NCBI GenBank assembly: GCA_039932635.1
Contig: JBDTPR010000001.1
Coordinates: forward strand, 1-42,794
Direction of reading: 5' to 3'
Length of the DNA stretch: 42,794 nucleotides
Source: Candidatus Solibacter sp.
GTDB taxonomy: Bacteria > Acidobacteriota > Terriglobia > Bryobacterales > Bryobacteraceae
Shown here piece after piece: positions 711 to 42,794 of this stretch (within the stretch, counting starts at the first letter, position 1; every line of letters starts with the position of its first letter). The translations under genes were made by a program, and so were the position numbers. Below the pieces are notes generated by a model. The model did not search any database. It saw nothing but the letters and a program-made list of their open reading frames with translations, and had not been told where the DNA came from.

Positions 711-969
711 AGGCGGCGGTAGTTTCCTTGGACTTGCGGGCTTGCGAACCGGCTCGCTACAGGGCGATTCCTGCGACGACATCCTGACTCTGGCGGTGTC
801 TCGTGAGGTCCGTGAAAGTGAGTGTAACACGTTCGTCCGCAAGGCTCCGAACGCTGGTACGAGACGCTGGTACGGCGTGGTGGTATCTTCGACAAACCGC
901 GCATTCAATCGTGTTAAGCTCAGTTCCAAACGTGGGGAGCCGCTTTCTGTGAGCCCTGACCTCCTTCAG

Positions 970-3435: not shown

Positions 3436-4304
3436 CTTACCGAATTGTTCATAAGACGCTGTATAAGTACAAGACACCTGTCTCGGTCGGGAATCATGTC
3501 GCCTGCCTTACCCCCAGGTCTTCGGCCCACTACAGTTGCGAGTCGCATGAGTTGGTGATCACGCCACCGCCTGCCGGAATTACTCATCGTCCGGATTACT
3601 TCGGGAATCTGATTACTTTCTTTACCATCCGTCAGCCGCATCGCGAACTGTGCATAGAAGCGCGTAGCCGCGTGGCGATCGATGACGCCGCCGTGCCCTG
3701 GCCCGAACGCTCGCTGCCCTGGGATGAAGTAGCCCGGCGACTGCGCACCGATCTTACTCTGGAGGGGCTGGACGCCTATCAGTTCGTGTTTGAGTCTACA
3801 CGCGTGAGACCGGGCGACGAGTTCGCGGACTATGCCGCCGAGTCTTTTCCGCCTGGACGTCCGCTTACCGAGGCGTTACTCGACCTGACGGGCCGGATCC
3901 ACACTGACTTCCGCTTCGATGCGAAGGCGACCACCGTGCGGACCACGCCGGAAGAGGTGCTGCGTCTCGGGCGTGGAGTATGTCAGGACTTCGCTCAATT
4001 GCAGATCGCTTGCCTGAGATCGCTAGGCCTGTCTGCCCGCTACGTCAGTGGCTATTTGCGGACGTACCCGCCGCCCGGACGCGAAAGGCTGGTCGGCGCG
4101 GATGTGTCGCACGCCTGGCTGTCCGCGTATTGCCCGGGCGCAGGGTGGCTGGATGTGGATCCGACCAACAACCTGATCCCATCGCAGAGTCATGTCACGC
4201 TGTCCTGGGGCAGGGATTACGGTGACGTGAGCCCGGTCCGCGGCGTCATCCTGGGTGGGCGCGATCACACCATCGACGTCGGTGTGGATATGGAACCCTG
4301 TTAG
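3432..4304 (+). CDS. transglutaminase-like cysteine peptidase family protein (Bact_transglu_N + transglutaminase core)
   Basis: Start MTYRIVHKTLYKYKTPVSVGNH... at 3432, an internal Met of ORF 3333..4304. The Cys-His-Asp triad context is intact: GRGVCQDFAQL, DVSHAWLSAY, WLDVDPTN. It is translationally coupled to the upstream gene. Confidence 0.9.
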   Translation: MTYRIVHKTLYKYKTPVSVGNHVACLTPRSSAHYSCESHELVITPPPAGITHRPDYFGNLITFFTIRQPHRELCIEARSRVAIDDAAVPWPERSLPWDEVARRLRTDLTLEGLDAYQFVFESTRVRPGDEFADYAAESFPPGRPLTEALLDLTGRIHTDFRFDAKATTVRTTPEEVLRLGRGVCQDFAQLQIACLRSLGLSARYVSGYLRTYPPPGRERLVGADVSHAWLSAYCPGAGWLDVDPTNNLIPSQSHVTLSWGRDYGDVSPVRGVILGGRDHTIDVGVDMEPC

Positions 4305-4354
4305 CTAGCGGCCGCCTGATTTCTTGCGGTCCTGACGCAAACGCTCCCTCACGG

Positions 4355-4433
4355 TCGCGGCTCTGATTGGGTCTCGCGGGCCTTAATGGGGCTCGCGGCT
4401 CTGATTGGGTCTCGTGCCTTGATCAGAGCCGCG
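4355..4433. repeat. REP-like intergenic repeat: two perfect 22-nt direct copies plus an inverted partial copy (hairpin-capable)
   Basis: tcgcggctctgattgggtctcg occurs at 4355-4376 and again at 4393-4414. atcagagccgcg at 4422-4433 is the reverse complement of cgcggctctgat at 4395-4406. The element lies in the spacer between two convergent genes. Confidence 0.6.
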
Positions 4434-4461
4434 CGCGTCAGCAATCGGTCACGGCGCTGGC

Positions 4462-5445
4462 CTACCGGCCGCCCCTTTTTGGAATATTGGGATGAGCGGG
4501 CACCGGCTCCGGCTTCCACGCCCAGGTGAAGGGTCCGGAATAAACGCTGCCTGCCACGCCGTTGTAGCTCAGGTAGACCGCGACCTGGATATCGTTGTGA
4601 GACGGGCGAAACTTCAGTAGCGTGATCCATCCCGGGATTCCGCCGGAGGCTCCCAGGTTGCCGGTGACATTTACGGTGTGCCCGTCGTCGGCGGTGAGGC
4701 TGTCCATCGCCACGTACCCGTTGTGACCGTGCACGCCCCAGTGAACTTGGGATTCCTTGGCGTAGAACTTGTCGCGCAGTTCAACCCCGGTCTGGCCGGG
4801 TGCGCCGTACCCGGCGCATTGCGTGTCATTGGAACACCATCCGGCGTTGCCATCCTTGGGAAATACGTACGGGCCCGGCGCCGCGTAGGGCGCAGCCGTC
4901 CCAACGTGCCTCAGAAAGATCCACTGTCGATTGGGCTGGGAGGCCGACATTACGCCATCCGCCCACACTCGGGAAGGCTGCCCTGCGTCCATGTTGTCGC
5001 CAACGCCGACACCGATCAGGCCGAGGCGCACAAGGCCCCTCGGGGTAGTCACGTCGATTTTGGCGCTCTGCAAGGTCGAGGAAAAAGTCGCGGTGTACGG
5101 AGCGCAGATGTCGTGGTTTCCTTGCGGCCAGATGCCAGGGAGCGAGAGTGCGTTAATACGGGTCAGGCCGTCGAGGAAGAGCTTCCAGGATTTATCGTTG
5201 CAGGCCGTCACGTAGTCTCCGACACCTGCAATGGCCTTGATGTTCCAATACCGGGCGGCGGCTATACCGGCTGGTCCGCGGCCATTGGCGCCGACCATCC
5301 AATCCACCGCATTCGTCCACGACAACGGATCGTTGTCCACGTGAATGTCGTTGTAAACTGCAATTGTAAAATCGTCCCCGGTAGCCGGCGGCAGTTGAGC
5401 AAACGCGGTGACGGCAAGAACGAGAAATAGAAAAACAGTCTTCAT
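4462..5445 (-). CDS. secreted metallophosphoesterase (calcineurin-like)
   Basis: Signal peptide MKTVFLFLVLAVTAFAQ. Metallophosphoesterase motifs appear in order: VYNDIHVD (DxH), GVGDYV (GD), QGNHD (GNHD), HWGVHGHNG (GHxH-like). Confidence 0.75.
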   Translation of the reverse strand: MKTVFLFLVLAVTAFAQLPPATGDDFTIAVYNDIHVDNDPLSWTNAVDWMVGANGRGPAGIAAARYWNIKAIAGVGDYVTACNDKSWKLFLDGLTRINALSLPGIWPQGNHDICAPYTATFSSTLQSAKIDVTTPRGLVRLGLIGVGVGDNMDAGQPSRVWADGVMSASQPNRQWIFLRHVGTAAPYAAPGPYVFPKDGNAGWCSNDTQCAGYGAPGQTGVELRDKFYAKESQVHWGVHGHNGYVAMDSLTADDGHTVNVTGNLGASGGIPGWITLLKFRPSHNDIQVAVYLSYNGVAGSVYSGPFTWAWKPEPVPAHPNIPKRGGR

Positions 5446-10225: not shown

Positions 10226-13200
10226 ATGAAGTCTCCCCGGATGCGAGAGTTTACAAGAGGGGTCAAAAGGCGCCAGGTTGCGCTTCTGTTGTGTGTCAGC
10301 GCACTTTTCGCCGCCTTCCTCGGCAGCAATCTGCGCGGCGCGGAGGAGCCTCAACCGAACGCGTCAGCCCTGGTCAACAAGTACTGTGTGCAATGCCACG
10401 CCGGTGCGTCGCCCATGGGCGGCGTCAACCTGCAGCAATTGACGGCGCAAGCCTCCGTGGGCGAAAGCTACGCCATCTGGGGTAAGGTCGCGGGGGTGCT
10501 GGAAGAGCGCCGTATGCCGCCCAAGGGCATGCCGCAGCCCGCGGACAACGAGCGGGAGCAGGCCGCCAAGTGGATTCGCACCGAACTCGCCACCTACTTC
10601 AAGAAGCACGATGGCGACCCGGGCCGCGTTACGGTCCGCCGCCTCACCAGTGGGGAGTACGCCTACGCGATTCACGACCTCACCGGGATCGATCCGGATA
10701 CCGGCATCGAGGCCTCCAGCGATTCCGCCGGCGGCGAAGGCTTCACCAATTTCGGCGATGTGCAGTTCATGCAGGACGCCAACCTGGAGCGCTACCTCGC
10801 GGCCGCCAAGAAGATTGCCAATCACGCGGTGATCGGCAGCGGTCCGGTGGAATTCTACGTGGACCCGGGCAAGACGGGCTTCGAAATGTCCGCCATCACG
10901 CGGATCCGCGGCATCTACGCCAAGGAAGGTTTCCGTACCGTGTCGGGCGAAGGCGGCATTCCGTTCGGCCTTGAAAAATATGGCAAGGCTTTCTATGTGG
11001 CATGGCGGTTCAAGCATCGCGCCGCCATGGGAGAACCCAATGCCACGCTCAAAGAACTGGCCGCGCGCGAAGGCGTCGGCCTGAAATTCAGCCAGCACAT
11101 CTGGGACGTGGTCAATCACTCGGGACTCGGCTTCCCCTCTTCGGAAATGGCTGGGCGATGGCGCAAACTGCCGGCGCCGAGCGGCGCCGATCCCAATATC
11201 ACCGCGGCCGCGGCGAGACTCGGCTGCGAAGATATTCAGAAGTACCTCACTACGTGGCCCAGCTGGCTCTTCGGCCGGGGCGACGTGGCTGCCGGCGGCG
11301 CGGGCGATGAAAGTCCGCTGGTCTTCAACGACAAGTCCCTGAAGGCCGAAGCCGTACACCACTTCCTCTTCAATCGCGCCGGTCGCGGAGGCGGCTTTGG
11401 GCGCGGCGCCGCAGTCCAGACCGGGCCGCCGAAGCAGTTCCTCAATGTGGCAGCTCTCAACCCCAGCGCGCCCGGCAAATCCGTGATCGTCTGGCGCAGT
11501 CCGAGCGTGGGCTTCCGCGCTGCCGGTGCTCCTGGCGGTCGCGGAGGACGCAACCCCGGTACGCAGACCGCCGGCGGCGCCGCAGTCCCACCCGCCGCTG
11601 CCGTTCAGGCGAATACTGTTCAGCCCAACAATGGAGCAGGCGCCGGACAGACCGCCGCCGCGCTGCCCGCCGGTGGTGGCCGCGGATTCCAACCGGTCAT
11701 GCCGCGCGTGCCCCTGCGCGCCGCCGTCAGTGAGGAGACCGCCAAGCGCCTCAATTTCGGCCACAGTCCCGATGGCAGCCAGATTGGCCCCGACGATTTC
11801 GCCACCGAGGGCTCCGTGGCCTTCGAACTCGTGGTGCCCGACGGCTCCACGCTCGCCGACTTTATGGTGGACGCCGCCGTGGGCGCCGATCGCGATCAGG
11901 TCTTCCGCATCACGCTGAGCGATCGCGAGGAAGGCCCGCGCGGCATTCCGACGCGCGCCATCGTAGGCGATCCGGATAGCGCCGGCTACCGCAAATTCAA
12001 GGCCGGAGTTTTGGAGTTCGCCAGCATCCTGCCGCCGAATTCCAACAGCGAGCCCACGCCCGCCGACAAGGACCCCGTTCCCGAACCCTTTGACAGCACG
12101 TACAATACTCCCGAGCACGACGCCTTCGTCAACGACGTGAAGTATATTCGCGACGACCGTTTCGTCGTGGAACACATTGTGGATGACGCCACGCGCGCGC
12201 GCCTCAATTTTGCTTGGAATGATCTCAAGTCGTCCTTCTCGTACCACGACAACTACCTGCGCCTGCTCGCCCTGCATTACAACCTGGATCTCAAGGGCAA
12301 ACACATCGCCGATCTCGATAAAGCCACGGTGGATTCGCTTCCGGCGGAACCCCGCCGGTATATTGCGCCGCTGCACGCTGAGTACGTCGCCGTGCGCACC
12401 GCCGAAGCGGCCGCCCGCCCGCGTCACGTCGCCGATTGCCTGCAGTTCGCAGCCAATGCCTGGCGGCACGCGCTCTCCGAAAAGGAGAAGCAGGGCCTGC
12501 GCACTTTCTACGATAAGGCCATCACTACCGAAGGCGATCACGAAAAGGCCATACGCGCCTTGATCACACGCATCCTGGTCTCCCCGGCGTTCCTGTACCG
12601 CGTCGAGCAGCCGGTGGAAACCGCTGCGGCTCGCCCGCTCGGCAACTGGGACATGGCCAGCCGCCTGAGCTTCTTCCTGTGGTCCTCGATTCCCGATTCC
12701 GAACTGCAGCGAGCCGCCGCCGCCGGGGAACTCAGCGACCCGCAGCGACTGCGCGCGCAAGTGAAGCGTATGCTTGCCGACCCCAAAGCTCGCCGCCTCT
12801 CCACCGAATTCTTCGGGCAGTGGCTGGGCTTCTACCACTTCGATCAGTTCCGCGGCGTGGATACCGCGCGCTTCCCCGAGTTCACCGACGAAGTCAAAAG
12901 CTCCATGTACGACGAGGCCGTCTCGTTCTTCGAATACGTGATCCGCAAGGACCGTCCGGTCCGCGATGTCTTGTTCGCCGACTATGGCTTCCTCAATCAG
13001 CCGCTGGCCAAATTCTACGGCGTGAAGAAAGACGTTGCGTCGAAGGGCGCGGTCGAACTCGTGGAGGGTGCCGGACAGTTCCACCGCGGCGGTCTGCTGC
13101 GCCTCGGCGCCATCCTCACCGCCACTTCGGCGCCTCTGCGAACGAGCCCCGTGAAACGCGGCGATTGGGTGCTGCGCCGTGTACTCGGGACTCCCGTGCC

Positions 13201-13741
13201 GCCGCCGCCGGCCAACGTGGGCAAAATTCCGGAAGACGAAAAGGGCTTCGGCGAACTCACGCTGCGTCAGACGCTGGAAGCGCACAAGCGCAATCCCAGT
13301 TGCGCTGGTTGCCACGTGCGCATCGATCCGCTCGGCTTCCCGCTGGAACACTACGATTCCACCGGCCGCTGGCGCCAGACTTATTCCGATGGCAAGCCTA
13401 TCGACGATCAAGGCGTGCTCTCCGATAAGACAGAGATCGCCGGCATCGATGGCCTGCTCGGCTACCTCAAGGGTAAGGAAGATCAACTGCGACGCACCAT
13501 GGCCACCAAGATGGTGGGCTACGCGCTCGGCCGCACGGTGCAGGCCTCCGACCAGTTGCTGATCGACCGTATGGCCGCCACTGGCAACAACGCGACGTTC
13601 TCGCAGTTTGTGGCGGAAATTGTCGCCAGCCGCCAGTTCCGCAATCATGCAGGCCGCGACGACGCCCCGGCGCCATCGCCAGTGAAAACCGCCGCGGTAG
13701 CGGCCGTCAATTCAACCAAATCACAAGCAGGTGCACGATGA
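10226..13741 (+). CDS. DUF1592/DUF1588/DUF1587/DUF1585/DUF1595-type large secreted protein with CxxCH motifs
   Basis: Signal-like N-terminus ([16 protein letters not shown]). N-terminal CVQCH in a planctomycete-cytochrome-like context ([10 protein letters not shown]...GGVNL). C-terminal [16 protein letters not shown] block, typical of DUF1588. It is paired with a DUF1552 gene through an ATGA overlap. Confidence 0.85.
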
Positions 13742-15105
13742 AAAAGAGCCAGAACACTTCGACCGCCGGATCCAGTTCGCGGCGGCATTTCCTGCGCGGC
13801 GCCGGTGTGGCGCTCGCCCTCCCGTGGCTGGAATCGCTGCCCCTGTTCGCCCAGGACGCCGCGCCTGCCGCGGCCGCGGCGGCCAACAAGCCGCCCCTGC
13901 GCTTCGCGTGCATCTACTTCTCCAACGGCGTCGATACCCAAAATTGGTGGGCCAAGGGTAGCGGCGCCGCTATGGAACTGGGACCGGCGGCGGCTCCGCT
14001 TGCACCTATCCGCGAGGACATGGTGTTCATCAAGGGCCTCTACCATCAGACTGCCCTGGTCTCCACCAGTCCTCACCTGGGCCGCATGAACATGCTCTCC
14101 GGCGTGAAGGTGAGCCTGGACCCGAACGACATTCGCGTGGGCGCCACCATGGACCAGGTGATGGCGCAGCACCGGGGCCACGAGACCGTCGTGCCGAGTC
14201 TCGCGCTCGGCATCGAGCCCAATGAACTGCGGCTGGAAGATGGGCTCTCCATGCTGTATGGTTCGGCGATCTCCTGGATGTCGGCGACCAAACCAGCTTC
14301 CAAGGAAATCTACCCGGCGCGAACCTTCGACCAATTGGTGGGCGATGGCAAGGGCCGGAAACTCGACCGCAGCGTGCTCGACGCGGTGCTTCAGGAAACC
14401 CGCGACCTGCAGCCGAAGATCAGTAACGGCGACCGCAGGAAATTGGACGAATATCTGGAATCCGTGCGCGATATCGAAAAGCGCATCGATCGCGCCGGCA
14501 AACAGGAATTGCTCGAAGGGTGGCGTCCCACGCTCCAGCAGCCCAACATGCCGCGACCCTCCGACGAGTTGCCGCAGAATCCGCCCGAGCACATGAAGCT
14601 CATGCTCGACCTGATCGTGCTCGCCTTCCAGATGGACAAGACGCGCATCGTCACCTGCATGTTGAACAATGACCTCTCGCAGATGAATTTCAAGTTCGTC
14701 GACGGCGTGCGCGGCGCGTTGCATCTCGACCTCACACACGGCAAGACGGCCGCTACCAAAGCGATGTACCTGAAGACCAATCAGTTCCACATGCAGCAGC
14801 TCACTTACATCGTGCAGCGCATGAAGCAGATCGATGAAGGCGGCCAGTCGCTGCTGGATAATTCGATGCTGATGTTCGCCTCCAGCCTCTACGATGGCGA
14901 CTTGCACGGCGCCGACCAGATGCCGATCATCATGGCAGGCAAGGCGGGCGGCGCGATGCAGACCGGCCGCGTCCTGGATTACCTCGATAAGGGCAACGAC
15001 AATCGGCGCGCCTGCAGCCTCTATCTTTCGATGATGGATCGCATGGGTGTGAAACTGGATCGCTTCGGAGATACCGACAAGCGTCTCCCTGGCCTGTTTA
15101 CATAA
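13738..15105 (+). CDS. DUF1552 domain-containing protein, Tat-exported
   Basis: [23 protein letters not shown] is the typical N-terminus of this family. The protein is 455 aa and its start overlaps the upstream stop (ATGA at 13738-13741). Confidence 0.85.
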
Positions 15106-15115
15106 CGGAGCAGTC

Positions 15116-15634
15116 ATGAATCGAACACGCCTGATACTCGTGCCGATCGCGGCCGGCCTGCTGGCCTGGGCACAGAACGATGGACCCGGTGCCGGTCAGG
15201 GTTACCTGCCGGAGTTTGGCCACTCCTCACGCCAGATTCTGCAACTGGCCGATGCCACGCCGGCGGAGAAATTCGCGTGGCGTCCCGCGCCCGGTGTGCG
15301 CAGCATCAGCGAAGTCTACATGCATATCGCGGTGGGCAACTACTTTCTGTTGAACCAGGCGGGAGTGAAGCTCGAAAATGCGCCGAAGTTCTCGCAGACC
15401 ACGGAGAAGGATGTGAAGGATAAGGCCGCCGTGGTTGGCTGGCTGAAGGACTCTTTCGACGCCGTCAAAGCTAGCTATCCGAAATCGGAATTCAAGAAGC
15501 CGGTGAAATTTTTCGGCCAGGATTCCAATGTGGAGAATGTGTACCTCCGGGTTCTGGTACACAATCACGAGCACATGGGCCAGTCGATCGCCTACGCCCG
15601 GATGAATGGCATCGTGCCGCCCTGGTCGAAGTAA
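15116..15634 (+). CDS. DinB-family (DinB_2-like) protein with signal peptide
   Basis: Starts 10 nt after the DUF1552 stop, with ggag upstream. Signal peptide MNRTRLILVPIAAGLLAWAQ. His-containing helices YMHIAVGNYF and VLVHNHEHMGQ are typical of the DinB four-helix-bundle metal site. Confidence 0.8.
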   Translation: MNRTRLILVPIAAGLLAWAQNDGPGAGQGYLPEFGHSSRQILQLADATPAEKFAWRPAPGVRSISEVYMHIAVGNYFLLNQAGVKLENAPKFSQTTEKDVKDKAAVVGWLKDSFDAVKASYPKSEFKKPVKFFGQDSNVENVYLRVLVHNHEHMGQSIAYARMNGIVPPWSK

Positions 15635-16626: not shown

Positions 16627-17118
16627 TCAGACGTGCTGATCCAGCAGAATCGGATTGCCGTCCGGGTCAACCGCGATCAGGCTCGCCGGGCCCGTTGTGC
16701 TCTCGTCCGCCGCGCTGACCAGCTTCACTCCTTGCGCCTTCAACCGCCGCTGCAGTTCTCGCACGTCGGTAAACGCAGGCAGCTTTTTGGCGTTGCTGTC
16801 CCAGCCCGGATTGAAAGTCAGAATGTTCTTCTCGAACACGCCCTGAAACAAGCCGATGATGGCATCCCCGTTTTTCATGATCAGCCAGTTCTTGGCGGCA
16901 TTGCCGCCGAACTCCTTGAAACCGAGCTGCTCGTAGAACTTTCTCGAAGCTGCCAGGTTTTTGACGGTCAGGCTGATGGAGAAAGCGCCCAATTGCATGG
17001 AAGGCTCTTTGGGCGCGGTTGCGACCGGAGTCTGTACGGTCTGCCCGGCAAGAGCGCTCGTGCCTATTGCCTGCATGGCGGCGCGGCGGGTGAAGCGGGT
17101 CTTCATCGTGCTCCACAT
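16627..17118 (-). CDS. VOC (glyoxalase/bleomycin-resistance fold) protein, exported
   Basis: Tat-like leader TRFTRRAAMQAIGTSALA, followed by a single VOC module (FSISLTVKNLAASRKFYEQLGFKEF...LIAVDPDGNPILLDQH). An alternative start at 17106 is possible. Confidence 0.8.
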   Translation of the reverse strand: MWSTMKTRFTRRAAMQAIGTSALAGQTVQTPVATAPKEPSMQLGAFSISLTVKNLAASRKFYEQLGFKEFGGNAAKNWLIMKNGDAIIGLFQGVFEKNILTFNPGWDSNAKKLPAFTDVRELQRRLKAQGVKLVSAADESTTGPASLIAVDPDGNPILLDQHV

Positions 17119-17214: not shown

Positions 17215-18147
17215 CTACGCGGGCTTGCCTGCGCGTGCTACGATGCCATCCACTTCCGTCAACTCGCCTTCCGTGAGCTTCCAATCCGCCGCGCGCGCGT
17301 TGGCCTGCGCCTGTTGCTCGCTCTTCGCGCCGGCGATCACCGACGCCACGGCGGGCCTAGATGCCAGCCATGAAAATGCGAGTTGCAGCAGCGAGTGCCC
17401 GCGGCTCTCCGCGAACTCGCGCAGACGGTCGGCAACGCGGAGGTTTTCTTCCGTGAAGACCTTCGGCCCCCAGCCGGTCTCGCCGCGACTGCCCGCGGGT
17501 AGCGGCTCTCCGGCTCGATATTTGCCGGTCAGTAGCCCGTTGGCCAAGGGGAAGTAGGGGAGAAAGGCCAGGCTGCGGCGGATGCACTCGGGAAGCACCT
17601 CCTTCTCAGCGTCGCGATGCGTCAGGCTGTATTCGTTCTGCACGCTGATGAAGCGGGCCGCGCCGGCTTGCACCGCGTCCTCGGCCTCGCGGACCTGCTC
17701 CACGGAAAAATTCGAGCAACCGATCTCGCGTACTTTTCCCGCCTTCACCAGGCCATCCAGTGCCGCCAATGTTTCGCCGATCGGCGTGGCCGCGTCCGGG
17801 CGATGGAGTTGGTACAGGTCGATGCGATCTGTGCCCAGCCGCCGCAGCGAATCTTCCACCGCGCTGCGCACGTAGTCGGGCTTGGCGCCCTGATGCTGGT
17901 CATCGAGCTTACTGCCGAATTTGGTGGCGAGCACCACGCGGTCCCAACGGCCTTTCAGCGCCTGGCCCAGGAACTCCTCGCTCTGCCTGGGACCGTAGCT
18001 GTCCGCCGTATCCAGAAAGTTGATGCCGGCATCCAAGGCCGCGTCCACCACGCGCGCCGTCGCCGCGGCGTCGATGCGCCAGCCGAAGTTGTTACAGCCC
18101 AGGCCCACCACGGTCACGTCGAGCGAGCCGATTCTGCGCTTTTCCAT
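17215..18147 (-). CDS. aldo/keto reductase
   Basis: Start MEKRRIGSLDVTVVGLGCNNFG at 18147, an internal Met of ORF 17215..18192. AKR motifs INFLDTADSYG and EIGCSNF are present. It lies only 17 nt downstream of the fahA stop. Confidence 0.9.
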   Translation of the reverse strand: MEKRRIGSLDVTVVGLGCNNFGWRIDAAATARVVDAALDAGINFLDTADSYGPRQSEEFLGQALKGRWDRVVLATKFGSKLDDQHQGAKPDYVRSAVEDSLRRLGTDRIDLYQLHRPDAATPIGETLAALDGLVKAGKVREIGCSNFSVEQVREAEDAVQAGAARFISVQNEYSLTHRDAEKEVLPECIRRSLAFLPYFPLANGLLTGKYRAGEPLPAGSRGETGWGPKVFTEENLRVADRLREFAESRGHSLLQLAFSWLASRPAVASVIAGAKSEQQAQANARAADWKLTEGELTEVDGIVARAGKPA

Positions 18148-18164: not shown

Positions 18165-19397
18165 TTAAGAACCGACCACCAGTCCCGTGCACTCGCCAAT
18201 CCCAAGGCGCGGCAATCCCTCGCGCTCGCAGAAGCCGCGCAGCGTGACCTCGTCGCCATCCTCCAGGAACTTGCGCGTCTCACCGGTCGGCAGCGTCACG
18301 GGTTCCGCCCCGCGCCTGGTGATTTCCAGCAGGCACCCGCGCGCCTCTTTGGCCTCGCCCGACACTGTCCCCGTCGCCAGCAGATCCCCCGGTCGCAGAT
18401 TGCACCCGTTGCTGGTGTGGTGCGCCACCATCTGCGCGATGGTCCAGTAGAGGTCCTTCAGATTGCCATGGCTCAAGCGCATTGGCGGCATGCCCGTGGC
18501 ACGCATCTGCGCGGTGCTCACGTGGACCTCCAGCGTCACGTCGAGCGCGCCGCGTTCCAGGTCGTCCGCGTCCGTGAGGTACGGCAGCGGCACGGGGTCG
18601 CCCGCCTCACGCGCGAAGCGCGGAACGCGGTACGGCGCCAGCGCTTCCATCGGCACCACCCACGGCGAGATGCTGGTCGCGAAGCTCTTCCCCAGGAACG
18701 GCCCCAGCGGCTGGTATTCCCACGCCTGCACGTCCCTCGCCGACCAGTCGTTGAGCAGGCACATGCCGAACACATGGTCCGCGGCGCGCGCCATCTCGAT
18801 AGGCTCGCTCATCGCGTTGCCGGTGCCGATGAAGAAGCCCGCTTCGAGTTCGTAGTCCAATGCCTGCGTGGGTCCGAAGCGTGGAGCCTCCGCGCCCGGC
18901 GTCATCGCCTGACCCTGCGGCCGACGCACCGGCGTGCCGCTCACCACGATCGACGACGCACGCCCGTGATAGCCGATCGGCACGTGCTTGTAATTCGGCA
19001 GCAGCGGATTGTCGGGGCGAAACAGGCTGCCCACATTGCGCGCGTGATATAGCGACGCGTAGAAATCCGTGTAGTCGCCGATCGCCACCGGCATCAGCAT
19101 CGTCACCTCGCGCATCGCGACCATGTTCTGCGCCGCGTCCGCGGAGGCCACCAATTCCGTGAGCCGCGCGCGCAAGGCATGCCAGTGCGCCGGCGTCAGT
19201 GCCATGAGCGCGTTCAGCGTCTCCGTCGCGCAGGCCTCTCGGGTTGCTTTCGGCAAGCCATCGAACAGTCCGGCGCCCGCCGCGGTGCGCAGGTCCAATA
19301 TCCGATCGCCAATCGCGACCCCGATTCTGGCGGCAGCGCCCTCGCGGCGGAAGACTCCGTAGGGCAGGTTTTCGATAGGGAAGTCGGCAGCCGTCAT
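18165..19397 (-). CDS. fahA: fumarylacetoacetase
   Basis: The real N-terminus is M(V)[18 protein letters not shown]...; the ATG at 19397 overlaps the upstream stop (ATGA), and 19403 is an alternative. FAH blocks PIGYHGRASSIVVSGTPVRRP and FGMCLLNDWSARDVQAWEYQPLGPF are present. The 5' part of ORF 18165..19952 is an out-of-gene extension. Confidence 0.9.
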   Translation of the reverse strand: MTAADFPIENLPYGVFRREGAAARIGVAIGDRILDLRTAAGAGLFDGLPKATREACATETLNALMALTPAHWHALRARLTELVASADAAQNMVAMREVTMLMPVAIGDYTDFYASLYHARNVGSLFRPDNPLLPNYKHVPIGYHGRASSIVVSGTPVRRPQGQAMTPGAEAPRFGPTQALDYELEAGFFIGTGNAMSEPIEMARAADHVFGMCLLNDWSARDVQAWEYQPLGPFLGKSFATSISPWVVPMEALAPYRVPRFAREAGDPVPLPYLTDADDLERGALDVTLEVHVSTAQMRATGMPPMRLSHGNLKDLYWTIAQMVAHHTSNGCNLRPGDLLATGTVSGEAKEARGCLLEITRRGAEPVTLPTGETRKFLEDGDEVTLRGFCEREGLPRLGIGECTGLVVGS

Positions 19398-20179
19398 AAC
19401 CATCCGAGTTGCTGCAGGTCGCGCACCGGTTCCTCGAAAGAGCACGAGCCGAAGCTGATGGCGAACTGTTCGCGCGCGGCGCGCAGTTGTTCCACAGTGA
19501 GCCCCTGTCCGTGCCAGGCCACGCCCGCATCGTCCCATGCGAAGGCGCTCGCCGATTGCTCTTCCAAGGTCGCCGCAGCCTCGGCTTCGGTACCGCCGTG
19601 CCACAGGCTCGCTGCCGCCACGAACACATTGACGAAGCCGTGCATCAGGGCCGACGGACTGTCCGCGGCATACGTGCACCGCTGCACGCTGCGCAGAGGA
19701 TGATGCAGTCCCGCCGTCGCCTTGAAGGGAACTTTCGCCGCCGCGCAGCGCGCCATAAAGCCCGCCAGCGCCGCGTCGGACGGGAACGCTGCCGCCGTGA
19801 GGCCGCCGGTACGCACCTTGGCGCGCCCCGTGGCGCCTGCGAGCGGCGCGGGGTCTTCCGTGATGGGCATCTCGTAGTACGCGACCACGCCCGGCATCAC
19901 GCCAGGAAACAGCGCGGGCACGTCGCTCGCGCGGTCCACCTTGATCTCGCACGAGTCCACTACGCGCTTGGGCATGCCGATCACGCTACACTTCCACGCC
20001 GGGTCCACTTCATCGAGCCGCGCTGCCGGCACGACGAAGCGTCCCAGCGCCCAGGCGTGCTCGCCCGCCGCGTACGACACGTAATTTCGTCGCGCCTCCG
20101 CCATCTCCAGCGAAGCGGGCGGGAACAAACCGGCGTAATCGATCAACCCTGCCAGCAGGGTGCGCAAACCTTCCGTCAT
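19394..20179 (-). CDS. conserved hypothetical protein (261 aa) embedded in the homogentisate operon
   Basis: Start [26 protein letters not shown] at 20179 overlaps the hmgA stop (ATGA), and its own stop overlaps the fahA start (ATGA). Notable blocks: [41 protein letters not shown]. No family name is known to me. Confidence 0.75.
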
Positions 20180-21456
20180 GGCTGTTGAAAGCGCTTCTTC
20201 AAGCCCTGCCAGCACTCGAAGTACTCGTGCTGCAGGATGCGGCTCTCCAGTGCGAAGCGCGTGGGTCGCAGCACCAGTTGGGTCTCGAACATGAAGGCCA
20301 GCGTGTCCTTCAGATAGTGCGGCTTCAACTCGGCGATGCACGCGCGCTCATAGGTCTCGGCATCGGGACCGTGTCCCGACATGCAGTTGTGCAGGCTGGC
20401 GCCGCCAGGCAGAAAGCCCTCGGCCTTCGCATCGTACACGCCGAAGATCAGCCCCATGAATTCGTTCATCAGGTTGCGATGGAACCACGGCGGACGGAAC
20501 GTATGTTCCGCCACCAGCCATCGCGGCGGGAAGATCGCGAAGTCCACTCCCGAGGGGGACGTCAACACCGTGTAGATGGAGGGATCGGGGTGGTCGAACG
20601 ACACCGTGTTGATGCAGTTGAAACGTGCCAGGTCGTACTTGTAGGGCGCGTAATTGCCGTGCCACGCGACGACGTCGAGCGGCGAGTGGTCGATCTCCGC
20701 CACCCACAGCTTGCCCAGAAATTTGGCGACGATCGTGCACTCCGCGTCGATATCCTCGAACGCCGCCACTGGCGTCAGAAAATCGCGCGCATTGGCCAAC
20801 CCGTTGGCCCCGATCGCGCCCAACTCGGGCAGGCGGAACGGTGCGCCATAGCACTCGCACACGTAGCCGCGCGATGCGCCCTCCGGCAATTCCACCTTGA
20901 ATTTGATGCCGCGAGGGATCACGCAAATCTCGCCCGGCGCCGCGTCGATTACGCCCAACTCCGTCGCGATGCGTGTCCGCCCCTGCTGCGGCACCAGTAG
21001 CAGTTCGCCATCCGCATTGTAGAAGTAGCGCCCCTGCATACTCGCATTGGCCGCGTACACGTGGACCGCAACACCGGTCTGCGTGGACGGATCGCCGCTG
21101 CCCGCGATCGTCACCAGGCCATCGACGAAATCGGTGGCTGTCTCGGGGATGGGAAACGGGTCCCAGCGCATCTGATTGGGCGGCGTGGGCAGTTCGTCGA
21201 AGGGACCGCCGCGCACCAGTCCGCCAGGGTGCTCGATGAAGGGACGGTGAGTCACGCTGGGGCGTATGCGATAGGTCCAGGTGCGCTTGTTGGCGGCGCG
21301 CGGTGCGGTGAAAGGGCTGCCGCTGAGTTGCTCCGCATACAGGCCCAAGGGCGCCTGCTGCGGCGAGTTCTGTCCCACGGGAAGCGCCCCGGCAACCGCC
21401 TCTGTGGCGAACTCGTTGCCGAAGCCGGATTGGTATCGCAGGTCGCTGGACGGCAT
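20176..21456 (-). CDS. hmgA: homogentisate 1,2-dioxygenase
   Basis: [33 protein letters not shown]... and [40 protein letters not shown] are near-invariant HGD blocks. The 426-aa length fits the family. Confidence 0.95.
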
Positions 21457-30358: not shown

Positions 30359-31792
30359 CTATGCCAACATCTTCTGCACGACCTTGCCTTCCACGTCGGT
30401 AAGGCGGAAATCGCGGCCCATGTGGTGCACCGTGAGACGCGTGTGATCCAGCCCCAGGCAGTGGAGCAAGGTAGCCTGGAGGTCGTGGACGTGGACTTTG
30501 TCTTCCACCACATTCATGCAGAGGTCGTCGGTCTTGCCGACTACGGTGCCGCCCTTGATGCCGCCGCCCGCCATGAAGAGGCTGTAGGCGAGCGGATGGT
30601 GGTCGCGGCCCGCATTGTTAGCGTCGCGCGGATTGCGGATCTCGCACATCGGCGTGCGCCCGAATTCGCCGCCCCATACGACCAGCGTATTTTCGAGCAG
30701 GCCGCGCTGCTTGAGATCTTTGATCAGCGCCCCTGTGGGCTTGTCGGCGACATCGCAATGGGTCTTGAGCTTGCGATTGAGATCGGTGTGGTCGTCCCAA
30801 CTCGCATGGTTGAGCATGACGAAGCGCACGCCGCGCTCCACCATGCGGCGGGCCAGCAGGCAATTGGTCGCGAACTGTTTGGTGGGGTCCTCATTGACGC
30901 CGTACATGGCGAGCGTCTCAGGACTTTCCTTCGAAAAATCGAGAAGTTCGGGGGCCGCCATTTGCATGCGGAAGCCGAGCTCGTAGGAGGAGATGCGCGA
31001 GGCGATCTCCATATCGCCGGTGTTGGTGTAGTGCTCCTCGTTGAGATCCTTGAGCACGTCGAGTTCGGCGCGCTGCATCTCGCGGGTCACGCCCGGAGGA
31101 TTCGAGAGGTAGAGCACGGGATCGCCCGCGCTGCGGAAAACCACGCCCTGATAGGTGGATGGCAGATAGCCGCTCGACCAGTTGGAAGTGCCGCCGCTGG
31201 TGCCGACGCCGGAACTCAACACGACGAAGCCGGGCAGGTTCTGCGACTCGCTGCCGAGGCCGTACAGCGTCCACGCGCCCATCGTCGGACGACCCACCTG
31301 TATGCTGCCGCCGAAGAGCATTAACTGGCCGGGATGGTGGTTGAACGCGTCGGTGAACATGGAGCGCACCAGGCAAAGATCGTCGGCGCAGCTTCCGATA
31401 TTGGGGATGAAGTCGGAAAACTCCGTGCCACTCTGGCCGTGCGGCGTGAAGATGCGCGGACTGCCGAGTACGGCGGCGTTGGGCTTGGTAAACGCCAGAC
31501 GCAGGTCTTTGGTGAGTTCGGCGGGCAGCGGCTTACCGTGCCACTTCTGGAGTTCGGGCTTGGGGTCGAAGAGATCGATCTGGCTGGGTCCGCCCTCCAT
31601 GAACATGAAGATGATGTTCTTCGCCTTGGCTGGGAAATGGGCTTTGCGGGGAGCTAGCGGATTCTGTTCGACGGCGGCGGCGCGCGCGTCCTGCTCCAGC
31701 ATCTGCGCGAGGGCGATGGTGCCGATGCCGCCCGCGCAATCGCGGAAGAATTTGCGGCGGGATTGAATCCTGCGGAATTGTTCCAAATCCAT
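30359..31792 (-). CDS. DUF1501 domain-containing protein (sulfatase-fold), Tat-exported
   Basis: Tat leader QSRRKFFRDCAGGIGTIALAQ. Family blocks NIIFMFMEGGPSQIDLFDPKP and GRDHHPLAYSLFMAGGGIKGG. It starts 4 nt after the stop of the PSCyt/DUF1553 gene. Confidence 0.9.
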   Translation of the reverse strand: MDLEQFRRIQSRRKFFRDCAGGIGTIALAQMLEQDARAAAVEQNPLAPRKAHFPAKAKNIIFMFMEGGPSQIDLFDPKPELQKWHGKPLPAELTKDLRLAFTKPNAAVLGSPRIFTPHGQSGTEFSDFIPNIGSCADDLCLVRSMFTDAFNHHPGQLMLFGGSIQVGRPTMGAWTLYGLGSESQNLPGFVVLSSGVGTSGGTSNWSSGYLPSTYQGVVFRSAGDPVLYLSNPPGVTREMQRAELDVLKDLNEEHYTNTGDMEIASRISSYELGFRMQMAAPELLDFSKESPETLAMYGVNEDPTKQFATNCLLARRMVERGVRFVMLNHASWDDHTDLNRKLKTHCDVADKPTGALIKDLKQRGLLENTLVVWGGEFGRTPMCEIRNPRDANNAGRDHHPLAYSLFMAGGGIKGGTVVGKTDDLCMNVVEDKVHVHDLQATLLHCLGLDHTRLTVHHMGRDFRLTDVEGKVVQKMLA

Positions 31793-31796
31793 GGCG

Positions 31797-34355
31797 TTAG
31801 TCCCTTGTGATGAATTCGTCCAGATTGAGGAGGACGCGGCTCAACTCGACCCAGGCCGCGGCTTCGGCCTGCGGCACACCTTCCAACTGGTTGGGGAAGA
31901 GCGCGGGCACGGTCTGCGGATTGGCGGTGAGGCGGCGGCTGGTCTCATCGAAAAACTTGCCCAGACGCTCAGCCTCGCGCTGCGAAGGTTCGCGCGCCAG
32001 CGTGATCGCGAAGGCATGATTGAGACGCTGGCGGAAACCGCCCGACGCCTCGCGCATGATGCGGAAGGCGAGCGCCTGCGAAGCTTCGAAGAAGACCGGG
32101 TCGTTCATCAGGTTGAGCGCTTGCAGCGGAGTGTCCGTGCGCTCGCGGCGCGAGCAGGAGAGGCTGGCGGAGGGCGCATCGAAGCTCATCAACTGCGGAT
32201 AGGGTACGGTGCGCTGGAAAAGAATGTAGAGGCCGCGGCGATAGCGATCGGGGCCGGTGCTCTCTTCCCACTTCACGCTGCCGTTATACGAAAGCTCGGC
32301 GACACCCTTAGGCTGCGGCGGCCTCACGCTACGGCCACCGATGCGCAGATCCAGCAGTCCGGCGGCATAGAGCGATTCGTCGCGGATGAGTTCGGCGGGC
32401 AGGCGCAGGCGCGACTGGCGCGCAAGCAGCAGATTGTCGGGATCCTTCGCGGCGAGCTCGGGGCGGGCCTTCGAGCTCTGGCGATAGGCCGCGGACGTCA
32501 CCATCAGGCGGATCATCTGCTTCGTGCTCCAGCCGCGCTGAATGTACTCGGAGGCCAGCCAGTCGAGCAGTTCGGGATGGGTGGGACGGTCGCCCTGGGT
32601 GCCGAAATCTTCGCTGGTGAAGACGATGCCGCGTCCGAAAACTTCCTGCCACAGGCGGTTGACTGCGACGCGCGAAGTCAGGGGGTGCTCGGGCGAGACC
32701 AGCCAGCGGGCCAGTCCGAGACGGCCGGTTTCGCGGGCGGGCATGGGCGGTAGCACGGCGAGCGTGCCGGGTTGCACTTCGTCGCCGCGCTCGCGCCAAT
32801 CGCCCTTGACGTGAATATAAGTCTTGGGCGGCGTGTCGTTCTCGATCAGCACGGGGGCATAGCTGACGGGCGGCAATTTGGCGTTCAGCTCGCTGAGCTT
32901 GGTGCGCAATTCGGCGATCTTGAGCGCGTCGCAGTACTCCTTCCCATAGAGGTTGCCGCAGGAACCCAGGAAGACATCGAGCATCGCGTTACGCTGCAAT
33001 TCGGTGCGTTTCGCGGGGTCCAGGAAGAGCACCTTGCGAGCGTTATCGACAGTGTGGGTGAACTCGCCGTAGGCGAAATCCCAATCGTCGTGGGTGCCGG
33101 GATGGAGCGCCGAGTCGCGGAGTTTGGCTTCGTAATCCACCAGGTTCTCGGGGATCTTATACTCGGCGAGCAGCGCCTGTTTCTTGAGGTCGAATTCGGG
33201 CTTGGCGGTCAGGTAGGGGCCGAGTTCGCCGGGCAGCGGCGCCTGGACGTTGACCTCTTCCTGGGTGTTGAAGTAGGCGGTGAGTTGATAGAACTCTTTC
33301 TGGCTGATGGGGTCGTATTTATGGTTGTGACACTGCGCGCAGCCCACCGTGAGTCCCATCCAGACGGTGCCGAGAGTGGCCGCGCGGTCGAGCACTTGCT
33401 CGTCGCGGAACTGCTCGGGGTCGGTGCCGCCTTCGCGATTGGTGAGCGTGTTGCGATTGAAACCGGTGGCCACCAGAGTGTCGAGATTGCGTTGCGGCAG
33501 CAGGTCGCCGGCGAGTTGCTGCGTGGTGAACTGGTCGAAGGGCAGGTCGCGATTCAGCGCGTCGATCACCCAGTGGCGGTAGCGCCAGGCCCAGGGACGC
33601 GCGCGATCTTTTTCGTAGCCGTCGCTATCGGCATAGCGCGCGAGGTCCAGCCAGTACCGCGCCCACTTCTCGCCATAGTGCGGCGAATCGAGCAGACGGT
33701 CCACCATGCGCTCGTAAGCGTCGGGCCGGGCATCGCCCATGAAATCGCGGACCTGTTCGGGCGTCGGCGGCAGGCCGGTGATGTCGAGGCTGACGCGGCG
33801 AAGCAAAGTGAGTTTGGGTGCTTCGGGCGAAGGCGCGATGCCTTCCTTGTCGAGGCGCGCGAGGATGAAATTGTCGATGGCGTTGCGCGCCCATTTGGTG
33901 TTGCGGACAGCGGGCGGGGCGGGGCGCTGAATCTTCTGGAAGCTCCAGTGCGGCGCGCGGGCTGTCCACTCGACGCCCTGGTCGATCCACGCGCGCAGCA
34001 GTCCGACTTCAGCGGCAGTCAGGTGCGCGCCCATGGGAGGCATGAATTTGTTGTCCACGCCGGCCACGCGGTGAATCAGGCGGCTATCGGCGCTCTTGCC
34101 GGGGACGATGTCCTTGCCCGCGGCGCCACCCTTGAGCGCGGCGTCGTTTTGATCCAGGCGCAGGCCGCTCATCTGCTGCTGCGGGCCATGGCAGGCGTAG
34201 CAGCGTTTAGCGAGCAGAGGCTCGATATCGCGGGCGAATTCGATCTTGGCGGTGGCGGCAGGCGGCAGCGCGACGTCGGCGGCACGTAGCGGCACAAATG
34301 CCGTCAGGCAGACGAATGTCCCACCCAGTATCCCCAGTCTCAGCATCGCACCCAT
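31797..34355 (-). CDS. PSCyt1/PSCyt2(DUF1549)/PSD1(DUF1553) planctomycete-cytochrome-type large protein
   Basis: Preferred start is MGAMLRLGILGGTFVCLTAF at 34355; the ORF extends to 34463. Blocks: FARDIEPLLAKRCYACHGPQQ (PSCyt1), ARNAIDNFILARL (DUF1549), GCAQCHNHKYDPISQKEFY, and a DUF1553-like C-terminal half. Confidence 0.9.
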   Translation of the reverse strand: MGAMLRLGILGGTFVCLTAFVPLRAADVALPPAATAKIEFARDIEPLLAKRCYACHGPQQQMSGLRLDQNDAALKGGAAGKDIVPGKSADSRLIHRVAGVDNKFMPPMGAHLTAAEVGLLRAWIDQGVEWTARAPHWSFQKIQRPAPPAVRNTKWARNAIDNFILARLDKEGIAPSPEAPKLTLLRRVSLDITGLPPTPEQVRDFMGDARPDAYERMVDRLLDSPHYGEKWARYWLDLARYADSDGYEKDRARPWAWRYRHWVIDALNRDLPFDQFTTQQLAGDLLPQRNLDTLVATGFNRNTLTNREGGTDPEQFRDEQVLDRAATLGTVWMGLTVGCAQCHNHKYDPISQKEFYQLTAYFNTQEEVNVQAPLPGELGPYLTAKPEFDLKKQALLAEYKIPENLVDYEAKLRDSALHPGTHDDWDFAYGEFTHTVDNARKVLFLDPAKRTELQRNAMLDVFLGSCGNLYGKEYCDALKIAELRTKLSELNAKLPPVSYAPVLIENDTPPKTYIHVKGDWRERGDEVQPGTLAVLPPMPARETGRLGLARWLVSPEHPLTSRVAVNRLWQEVFGRGIVFTSEDFGTQGDRPTHPELLDWLASEYIQRGWSTKQMIRLMVTSAAYRQSSKARPELAAKDPDNLLLARQSRLRLPAELIRDESLYAAGLLDLRIGGRSVRPPQPKGVAELSYNGSVKWEESTGPDRYRRGLYILFQRTVPYPQLMSFDAPSASLSCSRRERTDTPLQALNLMNDPVFFEASQALAFRIMREASGGFRQRLNHAFAITLAREPSQREAERLGKFFDETSRRLTANPQTVPALFPNQLEGVPQAEAAAWVELSRVLLNLDEFITRD

Positions 34356-34537
34356 TATATTCCCCGCGGGGCAGGAGTATCCTAACCGCTTTCCCGATCC
34401 GCATCGCTCCCGCAGTGGGTGGTGGCTTGCCGCCCATTTAAAAAGGGCTACGCTGCTTAACAAAGCTTTCCGCCGGCGTCGACATTGTGCGGGCTAAACG
34501 GGCGGCGAAAAGCGGCGTGTGCTGCGTCAGCAATAGT

Positions 34538-36907: not shown

Positions 36908-40893
<3,986 letters not shown>

Positions 40894-40897
<4 letters not shown>

Positions 40898-42794
40898 ACA
40901 GCCGCCTCTTTATCAACCGATAGGTGTTGATTACCCAGTAAGGACTCGGCCAATGCCAGCAACAGCACTGCCAGCATGACATACCACCATAATGACACCG
41001 GTTTCTGTTCCTCGCCGGTGGTGTTGCTCCCCGTGACCGTTCCCTGTGCTGTGTTTTGCCACAAACTCAGGTTGTCGTTCGTGACCGGTGTGAGATCGCT
41101 CTCGTGCCGGTCGGCATTCACGGCCACCAGTTCGTTGCGCCCGTTGGGCCGGCGGATATCGTAGAAACCCGCCATCGTGTACTGAATGTTCTGGGCCTTC
41201 GTAGCCTCTTCCAGGGAAAGTGCGCGTTCGCCCTTGGGGTCCAGCACATCCACGGCGGCGCCCTTTTCCTTGGAATCGCGCAGTTCGCCGAAGCCGCCGA
41301 CCAGCACCATAGCCGGTCCCGCGTCGAGGTGTCCGAGATAACGCGCCGTCTGCTCGATGAATGGGACGAAGGACGGATGAATCGGGAAATCGTTAGCTAC
41401 GTTGTCGAACGTGGAGCCGAAGATCAGCACGTGGCCTTCGCCAAGTTGTTGATCGATCAGAACCGGGGTCTGGTCGCTCAGCTTGGCGACGACCCGTGCG
41501 TTGCCCGGAGCCACGTGGATCGCCTGATAGAACTTGACGCCTTCCCAACGGTCGTCCTTAAGAATCGAAGGGTGCGAAGCATCCAGCCATGCGGCAGTTT
41601 GAAAACGCTCGCCCTCGCGGCCGGCGTAACGGGTTTCCGTAATCGCGTCGCCTGTGACGGGGACTTTACTGCGGCCCACCGAAAGGCTGCCGAGCGAGAT
41701 CAAAACGCTGCCGCCGGCGCGCACGTAATCGCGCAGGGCACTCTCGAAAGTGGGCGGTACGGCGCCGATGTTGCTAAGGACGACGAACGCGTACTTATTG
41801 GGCGCCACGTTGGCCACCTGGTCCACGGTGGCCTGATCGATCTCGAAGGCGGATTGTCCGGCGGCTTCGAGTGCGGCTTTGAAGAAGACGAGTGCGCGGC
41901 TGCCGGTGTTTTCCTGTACGAAGAGCGCGTGGCGGGGATCGCTGCGCTCCACGGAGAAGTAGAAGCTGTCGTCGGCCGGAAGGGGGTCGGCGGTATCGAT
42001 CCGCACTTCGCCCTTATTGCGGCCGTACGGCACGTCGAGAGAGAGGAATTCGACCGTGGCGCGTCCGTTCTCAGGAACTTCGACCTGCTTGGATTCGGTG
42101 ACGCGGCCGTTCAGGCTGAGCGACACGGTGCGCGTGGCCTTTTTGTTGGCAAAGCCGGCCACCGTGACCAGCACACGGGTCTTCTTGGCGTCGTATACGC
42201 GGCGCGGCGCGACCACGTTTTCCACCGTGAAGTTGCCGGTCTCCTTGGCTTCGATCGGGTGTGGATTGAGTTTGATGGCGTTGCTGAGGCGGATGTCGTT
42301 GAAGTTCGCCGGCCAACCGGTCGCCTGCATGTCGGAGTAGAGTTCGACGGCCAGCGGGAGTTTGAGGGACGTGGCGATGGAGCGCACGGAGCGCGAAAGT
42401 TCGCCGTAGGACGTGCGGGCATCGCCGGCCTCGATGGAATCCACCGCGGCGTTGAGCGAATTGTGATCGTCGGTGACCTCGCTGAGGACCGCCACGCGGG
42501 AGCCGAAGGCGAGCACCTGCGCGCGCTGTCCCACGCGCAATCCGCCGATCACGGCTTTGGCCGCCGTCTTGGCCTGCGAGAGGCGAGTGCCGGTGCGCAT
42601 GCTCAGCGAATTATCGATGGCTAGTACGGTGACTTCGCCGCTCCGCTGGGAGGCCACGATATTCTGGCGCACGTAGGGGTGGGCGAAGGCAAGAACGAGG
42701 AGCAATACCAGCAGGGCGCGCGCCGCGAATAGCAGCAGATAGCGCAGGCGGCGGTGCTTGATGGAACTCTGCGTCCGCTTCTCGAAAAACATCA
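40894..42794 (-). CDS. BatA-N/vWA domain protein (5' end truncated by the window edge)
   Basis: The ORF is open to the window end. The first residues, MFFEKRTQSS...RRLRYLLLFAARALLVLLLVLAFAHPY, match the segment after the first TM helix of BatA-N (TIGR02226-type) proteins ('FSSLMF...'), so the true start is probably outside the window. A vWA MIDAS motif is present (VTVLAIDNSLSMRTG), followed by a long C-terminal region and a C-terminal TM helix (WWYVMLAVLLLALAESLL). Confidence 0.85.

Follow-up and report, generated by a model that had tools for sequence, protein, structure and literature searches.

Which protein carries out the cis-trans isomerisation of maleylacetoacetate in bacteria whose homogentisate operon has no gene for the usual isomerase of the glutathione S-transferase (GST) zeta type? 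The question arises from a 42,794-nucleotide stretch of DNA of Candidatus Solibacter sp. (contig JBDTPR010000001.1; hereafter the window), in which an unnamed gene, here called gene X, lies between hmgA and fahA. The homogentisate route is the main pathway of tyrosine and phenylalanine breakdown. Homogentisate dioxygenase (HGD), the hmgA product, forms 4-maleylacetoacetate, the cis compound, and fumarylacetoacetase (FAH), the fahA product, acts on the trans isomer; therefore, the cis-trans isomerisation is the only step that is left without an enzyme in operons of the X type. None of the X-type operons examined has an annotated isomerase, so an automated reconstruction will probably leave the step unfilled or mark it as "spontaneous". 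From the genomic association of X, we propose that it is probably a non-GST maleylacetoacetate isomerase (EC 5.2.1.2 chemistry) unrelated to GST-zeta, and we put the probability of this reading at about 0.6.

Gene X is translationally coupled to hmgA and fahA

All three genes are on the minus strand. hmgA (20176-21456) encodes a homogentisate 1,2-dioxygenase of 426 aa, which matches TIGR01015 with 677 bits (cutoff 511) and contains the Pfam domains HgmA_N and HgmA_C. Gene X (19394-20179) encodes 261 aa of an unnamed family and is the candidate isomerase gene, and fahA (18165-19397) encodes a fumarylacetoacetase of 410 aa, which matches TIGR01266 with 547 bits (cutoff 375) and contains FAA_hydrolase_N and FAA_hydrolase. 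Direct reading of the sequence confirmed the gene coordinates and the two ATGA overlaps given in an earlier note on this DNA. At 20176-20179, the hmgA stop codon TGA (20178-20176) shares its ATGA with the X start codon ATG (20179-20177), and at 19394-19397 the X stop codon TGA (19396-19394) does the same with the fahA start codon ATG (19397-19395). The three genes are thus translationally coupled. A longer X reading frame that starts at a GTG and extends to 20341 is possible; the homologue alignments begin at the ATG at 20179.

The earlier note saw no GST-zeta gene in the window, and our searches agree. Human GSTZ1, which we validated as a maiA query (TIGR01262, 307 bits), gave no tblastn match in the window at E < 10, and Pfam scans of 19 further large window open reading frames (ORFs) contained no GST domain.

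X accompanies fahA in at least eight phyla

We collected 81 loci centred on X from Acidobacteriota, Gemmatimonadota, Bacteroidota, Planctomycetota, Cyanobacteriota and Chloroflexota. In 62 of these 81, fahA starts on the same strand no more than 300 nt downstream of X; another 13 have it elsewhere in the locus, and three are undecidable at a contig end. hmgA is directly upstream of X in 34/81. When all ORFs near X were clustered, the recurrent partners were only fahA, hmgA, HPPD and PAH. Four loci (L001, L003, L007 and L107) follow the order of the pathway, PAH-HPPD-HGD-X-FAH, with X at the isomerase step. Three of the longer gaps between X and fahA were inspected and found to hold inserted toxin-antitoxin-like or DUF559-like ORFs.

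The same linkage is observed in more distant homologues from cultured organisms (26-34% identity), where the flanking genes had been annotated by others. A Priestia megaterium plasmid carries hppD-X-fahA-aminotransferase-HGD-amino-acid permease and is the only case with HPPD as a direct neighbour of X. Streptomyces sp. NBC_01213 has HGD-X-fahA followed by CoA transferases A and B, Rhodococcus rhodochrous pNit has an HGD-like cupin-X-fahA with a CoA transferase and a thiolase nearby, and Pseudonocardia has HGD-X-fahA with overlapping boundaries. Streptomyces NBC_00525 shows X-fahA-regulator, and the X-fahA core is retained in Kovacikia and Nonomuraea. In these operons, the route from tyrosine or homogentisate to fumarate and acetoacetyl-CoA is fully annotated save for the isomerase, and X is in the isomerase slot.

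In total, the X-fahA pairing is conserved in at least eight phyla. The hmgA-X-fahA arrangement is therefore not a matter of chance, as it recurs across phyla, and the association of X homologues with fahA, and often with hmgA, a point that the earlier note had put forward as a check, extends from Acidobacteriota to Bacillota and Actinomycetota. A natural fusion was also found: P0243, a protein of 512 aa truncated by the contig end, consists of an X domain (1-295), a Pro/Glu/Ala-rich linker and the N-terminal part of FahA. The linkage shows that X acts together with fumarylacetoacetase in the breakdown of homogentisate.

The family is large. A profile of X searched against 1.84 billion cluster representatives matched 5,685 clusters (50% identity) at E ≤ 1e-3 and 2,656 at E ≤ 1e-30, and in a word-indexed search 7,966 of the 8,000 candidates scored were hits. 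In genomes, X occurs in the six phyla of the X-centred sample, the Planctomycetota being represented by Phycisphaerae. On plasmids, it occurs in Actinomycetota (Streptomyces, Pseudonocardia, Rhodococcus and Nonomuraea), Bacillota (Priestia) and the cyanobacterium Kovacikia.

X fills the operon slot held by maiA in Proteobacteria

GSTZ1 found no match at E < 10 in the window and the 81 X loci together (1.4 Mb). We also examined a sample that was chosen independently of X, namely 80 metagenomic loci retrieved with a FahA profile, whose FahA proteins are 53-65% identical to that of the window. X is directly upstream of fahA in 45 of these 80 loci and elsewhere in the locus in one. GST-zeta is present without X in two (L162 and L165), 22 loci have neither gene, and ten have too little upstream sequence to judge. 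X and GST-zeta were found together in none of the 80 loci. The loci with neither gene include L094, L096, L108, L111, L118, L129, L135, L140 and L142; no third conserved candidate was found in the fahA loci without X or GST-zeta, and their isomerase may be encoded elsewhere, may be absent or may be of a third kind.

In the plasmid collection, FahA was found in 251 records, X in 23 and GST-zeta maiA in 237. All 23 X records are from Actinomycetota, Bacillota or Cyanobacteriota, and the counts of X and FahA are equal for Streptomyces (11 each) and Priestia (6 each). The commonest genera among the maiA records are all Proteobacteria, and maiA is often the neighbour of fahA, which it abuts in the plasmid examples from Paracoccus, Acinetobacter and Paraburkholderia. 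The place of X in these operons is the one taken by maiA in Proteobacteria.

X belongs to an unnamed family with a predicted barrel-like fold

X matched no family in Pfam or NCBIfam even at E ≤ 1, in keeping with the earlier note, which had seen no GST or DinB features in it. No PDB chain was matched with the single sequence or with the family profile; the sole profile match, DUF1185 (E = 0.5), was judged to be noise. When 70 diverse family members were compared with Pfam one by one at E ≤ 1, 23 families appeared, each with a single member, which we also regard as noise. The DinB/MDMPI models TIGR03083 and PF11716 matched neither X, nor the 70 family members, nor the Gram-positive homologues. 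Every X homologue that we encountered is labelled "hypothetical protein" in RefSeq. In one family member, P0173, the X domain follows an N-terminus that resembles a membrane CPBP protease; this arrangement may be an artefact of gene calling.

The AlphaFold2 model of X, built with 23 homologues, is confident, with a pLDDT of 94 and a pTM of 0.92. DSSP assigned eight main β strands that alternate with helices, plus extra hairpins, so the predicted structure looks like a divergent TIM-barrel-like fold without a close solved neighbour. In a Foldseek search, which the earlier note had suggested, the model matched nothing in the PDB or in the viral structures of BFVD at E ≤ 1e-3, and no significant match to an unrelated function appeared. 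The better of the weak neighbours are mostly TIM barrels (DERA 3ndo, a de novo barrel, triose-phosphate isomerase, pyruvate kinase and HpaI), with TM scores of 0.35-0.41, all ≤ 0.41 on the query. The best 50 matches listed contained no GST and no member of the Asp/Glu racemase superfamily, and X has no Pfam match to the latter either.

The top match, DERA 3ndo, has an E-value of 8.5e-3, TM scores of 0.35/0.38 and an rmsd of 10.6. Its rank, together with an FKATAG motif in X that we take to resemble the Schiff-base-lysine motif of DERA, prompted a comparison with E. coli DeoC. hhalign gave a probability of 0.4%, which does not support the likeness, and kinship with DERA was rejected. In the model of X, each of the eight main strands carries conserved residues, but the TM scores to the (β/α)8 barrels, DERA among them, stay in the low range given above, and X is not assignable to any barrel superfamily.

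The conserved residues of X are D14, E78, E103, K121, R123, K153, T155, H159, H160, N184, R236, C246 and E250. In 70 representatives with at most 50% mutual identity, D14, E78, E103, K121, R123, K153, T155, H159, H160 and C246 are invariant. Among 122 homologues with 27-63% identity, K121, R123, K153 and H159 are conserved in 122/122, C246 in 121/121 and D14 in 119/119, and the invariant set is retained in the Bacillota and Actinomycetota homologues at ~33% identity. The four sequence blocks quoted in the earlier note are present in X, and conservation within the family is highest in them. Judged from DSSP positions in the model, the invariant residues appear to lie on the eight barrel strands, at their C-terminal ends, where a TIM barrel classically has its active site; the predicted barrel thus looks like that of an enzyme. 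C246 sits at the end of the last predicted barrel strand.

X as a candidate non-GST maleylacetoacetate isomerase

X sits at the isomerisation step, replaces maiA positionally and was never seen alongside maiA, which argues that it is the isomerase. The suggestion of the earlier note, that X is a maleylacetoacetate isomerase of a non-GST type or supplies some other function missing from the pathway, is supported by those of its computational checks that were run. In the proposed scheme, HGD makes 4-maleylacetoacetate, X would convert it to 4-fumarylacetoacetate, and FAH would cleave the latter to fumarate and acetoacetate. For the chemistry, we tentatively suggest, at clearly less than even odds, a mechanism based on Cys246. 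Taking the part that glutathione plays in GST-zeta, its thiolate would add to the enone at C2, which would permit rotation about the C2-C3 bond, followed by elimination. The binding of the two carboxylates and the polarisation of the C4 carbonyl would fall to K121, R123, K153, H159 and R236, and D14, E78 and E103 might bind a metal. X also appears not to depend on one particular thiol of low molecular weight. Its active-site residues are shared by phyla that use mycothiol, bacillithiol, glutathione or no such thiol, which argues against one specific thiol, and any available thiol could still serve.

Compared with GST-zeta (MaiA/HmgC/GSTZ1), X has the same proposed reaction, the same pathway step and the same slot beside fahA and hmgA, but there is no sequence relation, as X matches none of GST_N, GST_C and TIGR01262. 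GST-zeta combines a thioredoxin-like domain with a helical domain, whereas the model of X is β/α along the whole chain; GST-zeta is glutathione-dependent and X presumably is not; and the taxonomic ranges of the two are complementary in the samples examined. A non-GST solution to the equivalent cis-trans isomerisation is already known from bacteria that lack glutathione, namely the DinB-fold maleylpyruvate isomerases. These enzymes (the mycothiol-dependent MDMPI, TIGR03083, and its cysteine- or bacillithiol-dependent relatives) act in the gentisate pathway and are helical-bundle metalloenzymes that need a small thiol, whereas X matches none of their models and has a predicted β/α architecture. 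A mechanistic analogue of the proposed chemistry is maleate cis-trans isomerase, a cofactor-free enzyme whose own cysteine adds to the double bond and allows rotation. X has one invariant cysteine, a candidate nucleophile, but the two proteins are unrelated in sequence and fold and differ in substrate.

Several observations weigh against the assignment of X as an isomerase. The assignment is built on association and elimination. Thiols can bring about the isomerisation of maleylacetoacetate without an enzyme, and mice that lack Gstz1 are viable; the pathway therefore need not, on logical grounds, have a "missing" isomerase. Neither X nor GST-zeta is nearby in 22 of the 80 fahA loci, and 11 of these 22 contain hmgA, mostly directly upstream of fahA. 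The mutual exclusion of X and GST-zeta is based on two GST-zeta loci and on genus-level plasmid counts. In three of the 81 X loci (L055, L071 and L074, all Phycisphaerales), there is no fahA and no hmgA within 10 kb of X. On a Streptomyces plasmid (L083), an MDMPI_N/DinB-type gene lies at 3985-4641, 3.3 kb upstream of X-fahA; its score on TIGR03083 is 37 bits, below the cutoff. Finally, the Cys246 mechanism derives from residue conservation, and the spatial clustering of the invariant residues is deduced from strand positions in a predicted model.

Some of these points would suit a pathway enzyme with a different reaction, the isomerisation being spontaneous or done elsewhere. X might be a keto-enol tautomerase of maleyl- or fumarylacetoacetate, or a detoxifier of maleylacetone, fumarylacetone or products of the succinylacetoacetate series. 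Synteny shows the linkage to the pathway and not which reaction is catalysed, and both the 22 fahA loci without an adjacent isomerase of either kind and the thiol-driven isomerisation agree with such a role. We nevertheless regard it as quite unlikely: X stands exactly at the isomerase position in the pathway-ordered operons and shows no tautomerase-family signature, and a detoxifier or tautomerase would be expected beside maiA and not instead of it, whereas no sampled locus contains both. A still smaller chance, which we consider very improbable, is that X is a non-catalytic factor that matures or stabilises FAH or the iron dioxygenase HGD. The X-FahA fusion could be read in this way, and there is a fungal precedent in HmgX (AFUA_2G04210) of Aspergillus fumigatus, an unannotated protein of ~256 aa with no conserved domain that is encoded in the tyrosine-degradation cluster and is needed for the conversion of 4-hydroxyphenylpyruvate to homogentisate (PMC3203155). 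Compared by description, HmgX and X are both unannotated, similar in size and encoded in tyrosine-catabolism loci. HmgX, however, functions in the HppD step, shows linkage to hppD and coexists with the GST-zeta maiA of the fungal cluster, whereas X goes with fahA, as a rule in the absence of hppD, and takes the place of maiA, with none nearby. Moreover, Proteobacterial FahA and HGD of similar sequence function without X, and a predicted barrel with about a dozen invariant polar residues at its strand ends looks catalytic.

The remaining alternative keeps the isomerase but changes its chemistry. X may need a low-molecular-weight thiol (cysteine, bacillithiol, mycothiol or glutathione), a divalent metal or both, with Cys246 in a structural or metal-binding role. 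The non-GST maleylpyruvate isomerases of Gram-positive bacteria need both a thiol cofactor and a metal, and the invariant D14, E78, E103 and H159 could bind one. On the other hand, the sharing of the same invariant residues by phyla with different thiols is easier to understand if no specific thiol is recognised, and catalytic nucleophiles are typically single cysteines that never vary and lie at the end of a strand, as Cys246 does in the model. This alternative is unlikely in our view, with some real chance of being right.

Taken to its full extent, the proposal that X is an isomerase would make it the founder of a new family of TIM-like-barrel isomerases that use their own cysteine and no thiol cofactor, that predominate outside Proteobacteria and eukaryotes, and that lie behind the glutathione-independent activity reported from Gram-positive bacteria in the 1980s; we give this combined claim somewhat less than an even chance. 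Hagedorn and Chapman reportedly described such a maleylacetoacetate isomerase activity in J. Bacteriol. in 1985, in Gram-positive bacteria including Bacillus, which we take as a lead and not as evidence. In the full-text open-access and bioRxiv literature, neither an earlier account of the X family nor a gene for a maleylacetoacetate isomerase of a non-GST type was found. The pathway and the reaction are already known; the protein family is new.

If a function is assigned to X, it would annotate several thousand clusters that are now "hypothetical protein" in RefSeq or without a Pfam or NCBIfam model, and it would fill a gap in the soil-dominant Acidobacteriota, Gemmatimonadota, Actinomycetota and Bacteroidota. 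If the isomerase reading is true, an orphan enzyme activity would gain its gene, and if the cysteine mechanism holds, enone cis-trans isomerisation would gain a new scaffold and a cofactor-free route. The hypothesis is readily testable, as strains of Priestia megaterium, Streptomyces and Rhodococcus that can be cultivated carry homologues on their plasmids.

Other features of X loci and of the window

The inserts between X and fahA (L014, 2285-2870; L075, 10922-12195; L050, 10882-11514) are small, mobile-looking genes. By eye, their translations were assigned to toxin-antitoxin pairs (Phd/YefM-like plus RelE/ParE-like), a nucleotidyltransferase-like ORF and a DUF559-like ORF. Directly upstream of X in three loci (L024, 8840-9997; L084, 6788-7990; L061, 939-1745) are short HGD-like cupins of 385-400 aa, which share ~25% identity with HmgA of the window and reach ~60 bits on TIGR01015, far short of its cutoff; some such cupins are annotated as homogentisate 1,2-dioxygenase by PGAP. 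The neighbours of X in the three Phycisphaerales loci without fahA are unrelated (a secreted PD40-like β-propeller, an SNF2 helicase and GSDH). The neighbours in these loci and in L079, where fahA is 3.5 kb from X on the opposite strand, include a small conserved "LDDLPYT...NLRKAGKLP" protein.

Downstream of fahA in the window, an aldo/keto reductase (AKR) gene is encoded at 17215-18147 on the minus strand (Pfam Aldo_ket_red, 1.7e-76). The fahA stop codon TAA is at 18167-18165 and the AKR start codon ATG at 18147, which bears out the 17-nt spacing reported in the earlier note, and the spacer contains a GGGAG Shine-Dalgarno-like motif. A promoter and terminator scan found no σ70-like promoter and no terminator-like site within hmgA-X-fahA-AKR. 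The one terminator-like site of the region (16552-16534) lies past a gene for a glyoxalase/VOC-fold protein of 163 aa with a twin-arginine-like N-terminus (16627-17118), which is downstream of AKR on the same strand. AKR is probably co-transcribed with hmgA-X-fahA in the window, yet it is no conserved partner of X: AKR-like matches occur in only 7 of the 81 X loci, and none adjoins X.

A DinB_2/DinB-family protein of 172 aa with a signal-like N-terminus is encoded on the plus strand at 15116-15634, 1.6 kb from the operon. Enzymes of the DinB fold include thiol-dependent maleylpyruvate isomerases; near X, however, none of the 81 loci has a counterpart of this gene. The glyoxalase-fold gene and a 288-aa window gene, likewise considered as partners of X, have no counterparts there either.

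Elsewhere in the window, two planctomycete-type gene pairs, PSCyt/PSD (DUF1592/1588/1587/1585/1595) with DUF1552 and DUF1549/DUF1553 with DUF1501, were found at 10226-15105 (plus strand) and 30359-34463 (minus strand). An 897-aa fusion of a circularly permuted ATP-grasp domain and an Alpha-E domain is encoded at 742-3435 on the plus strand. The region 36908-42792 on the minus strand encodes a protein of 1,329 aa that contains collagen triple-helix repeats and, after it in an overlapping frame, a VWA-domain protein.

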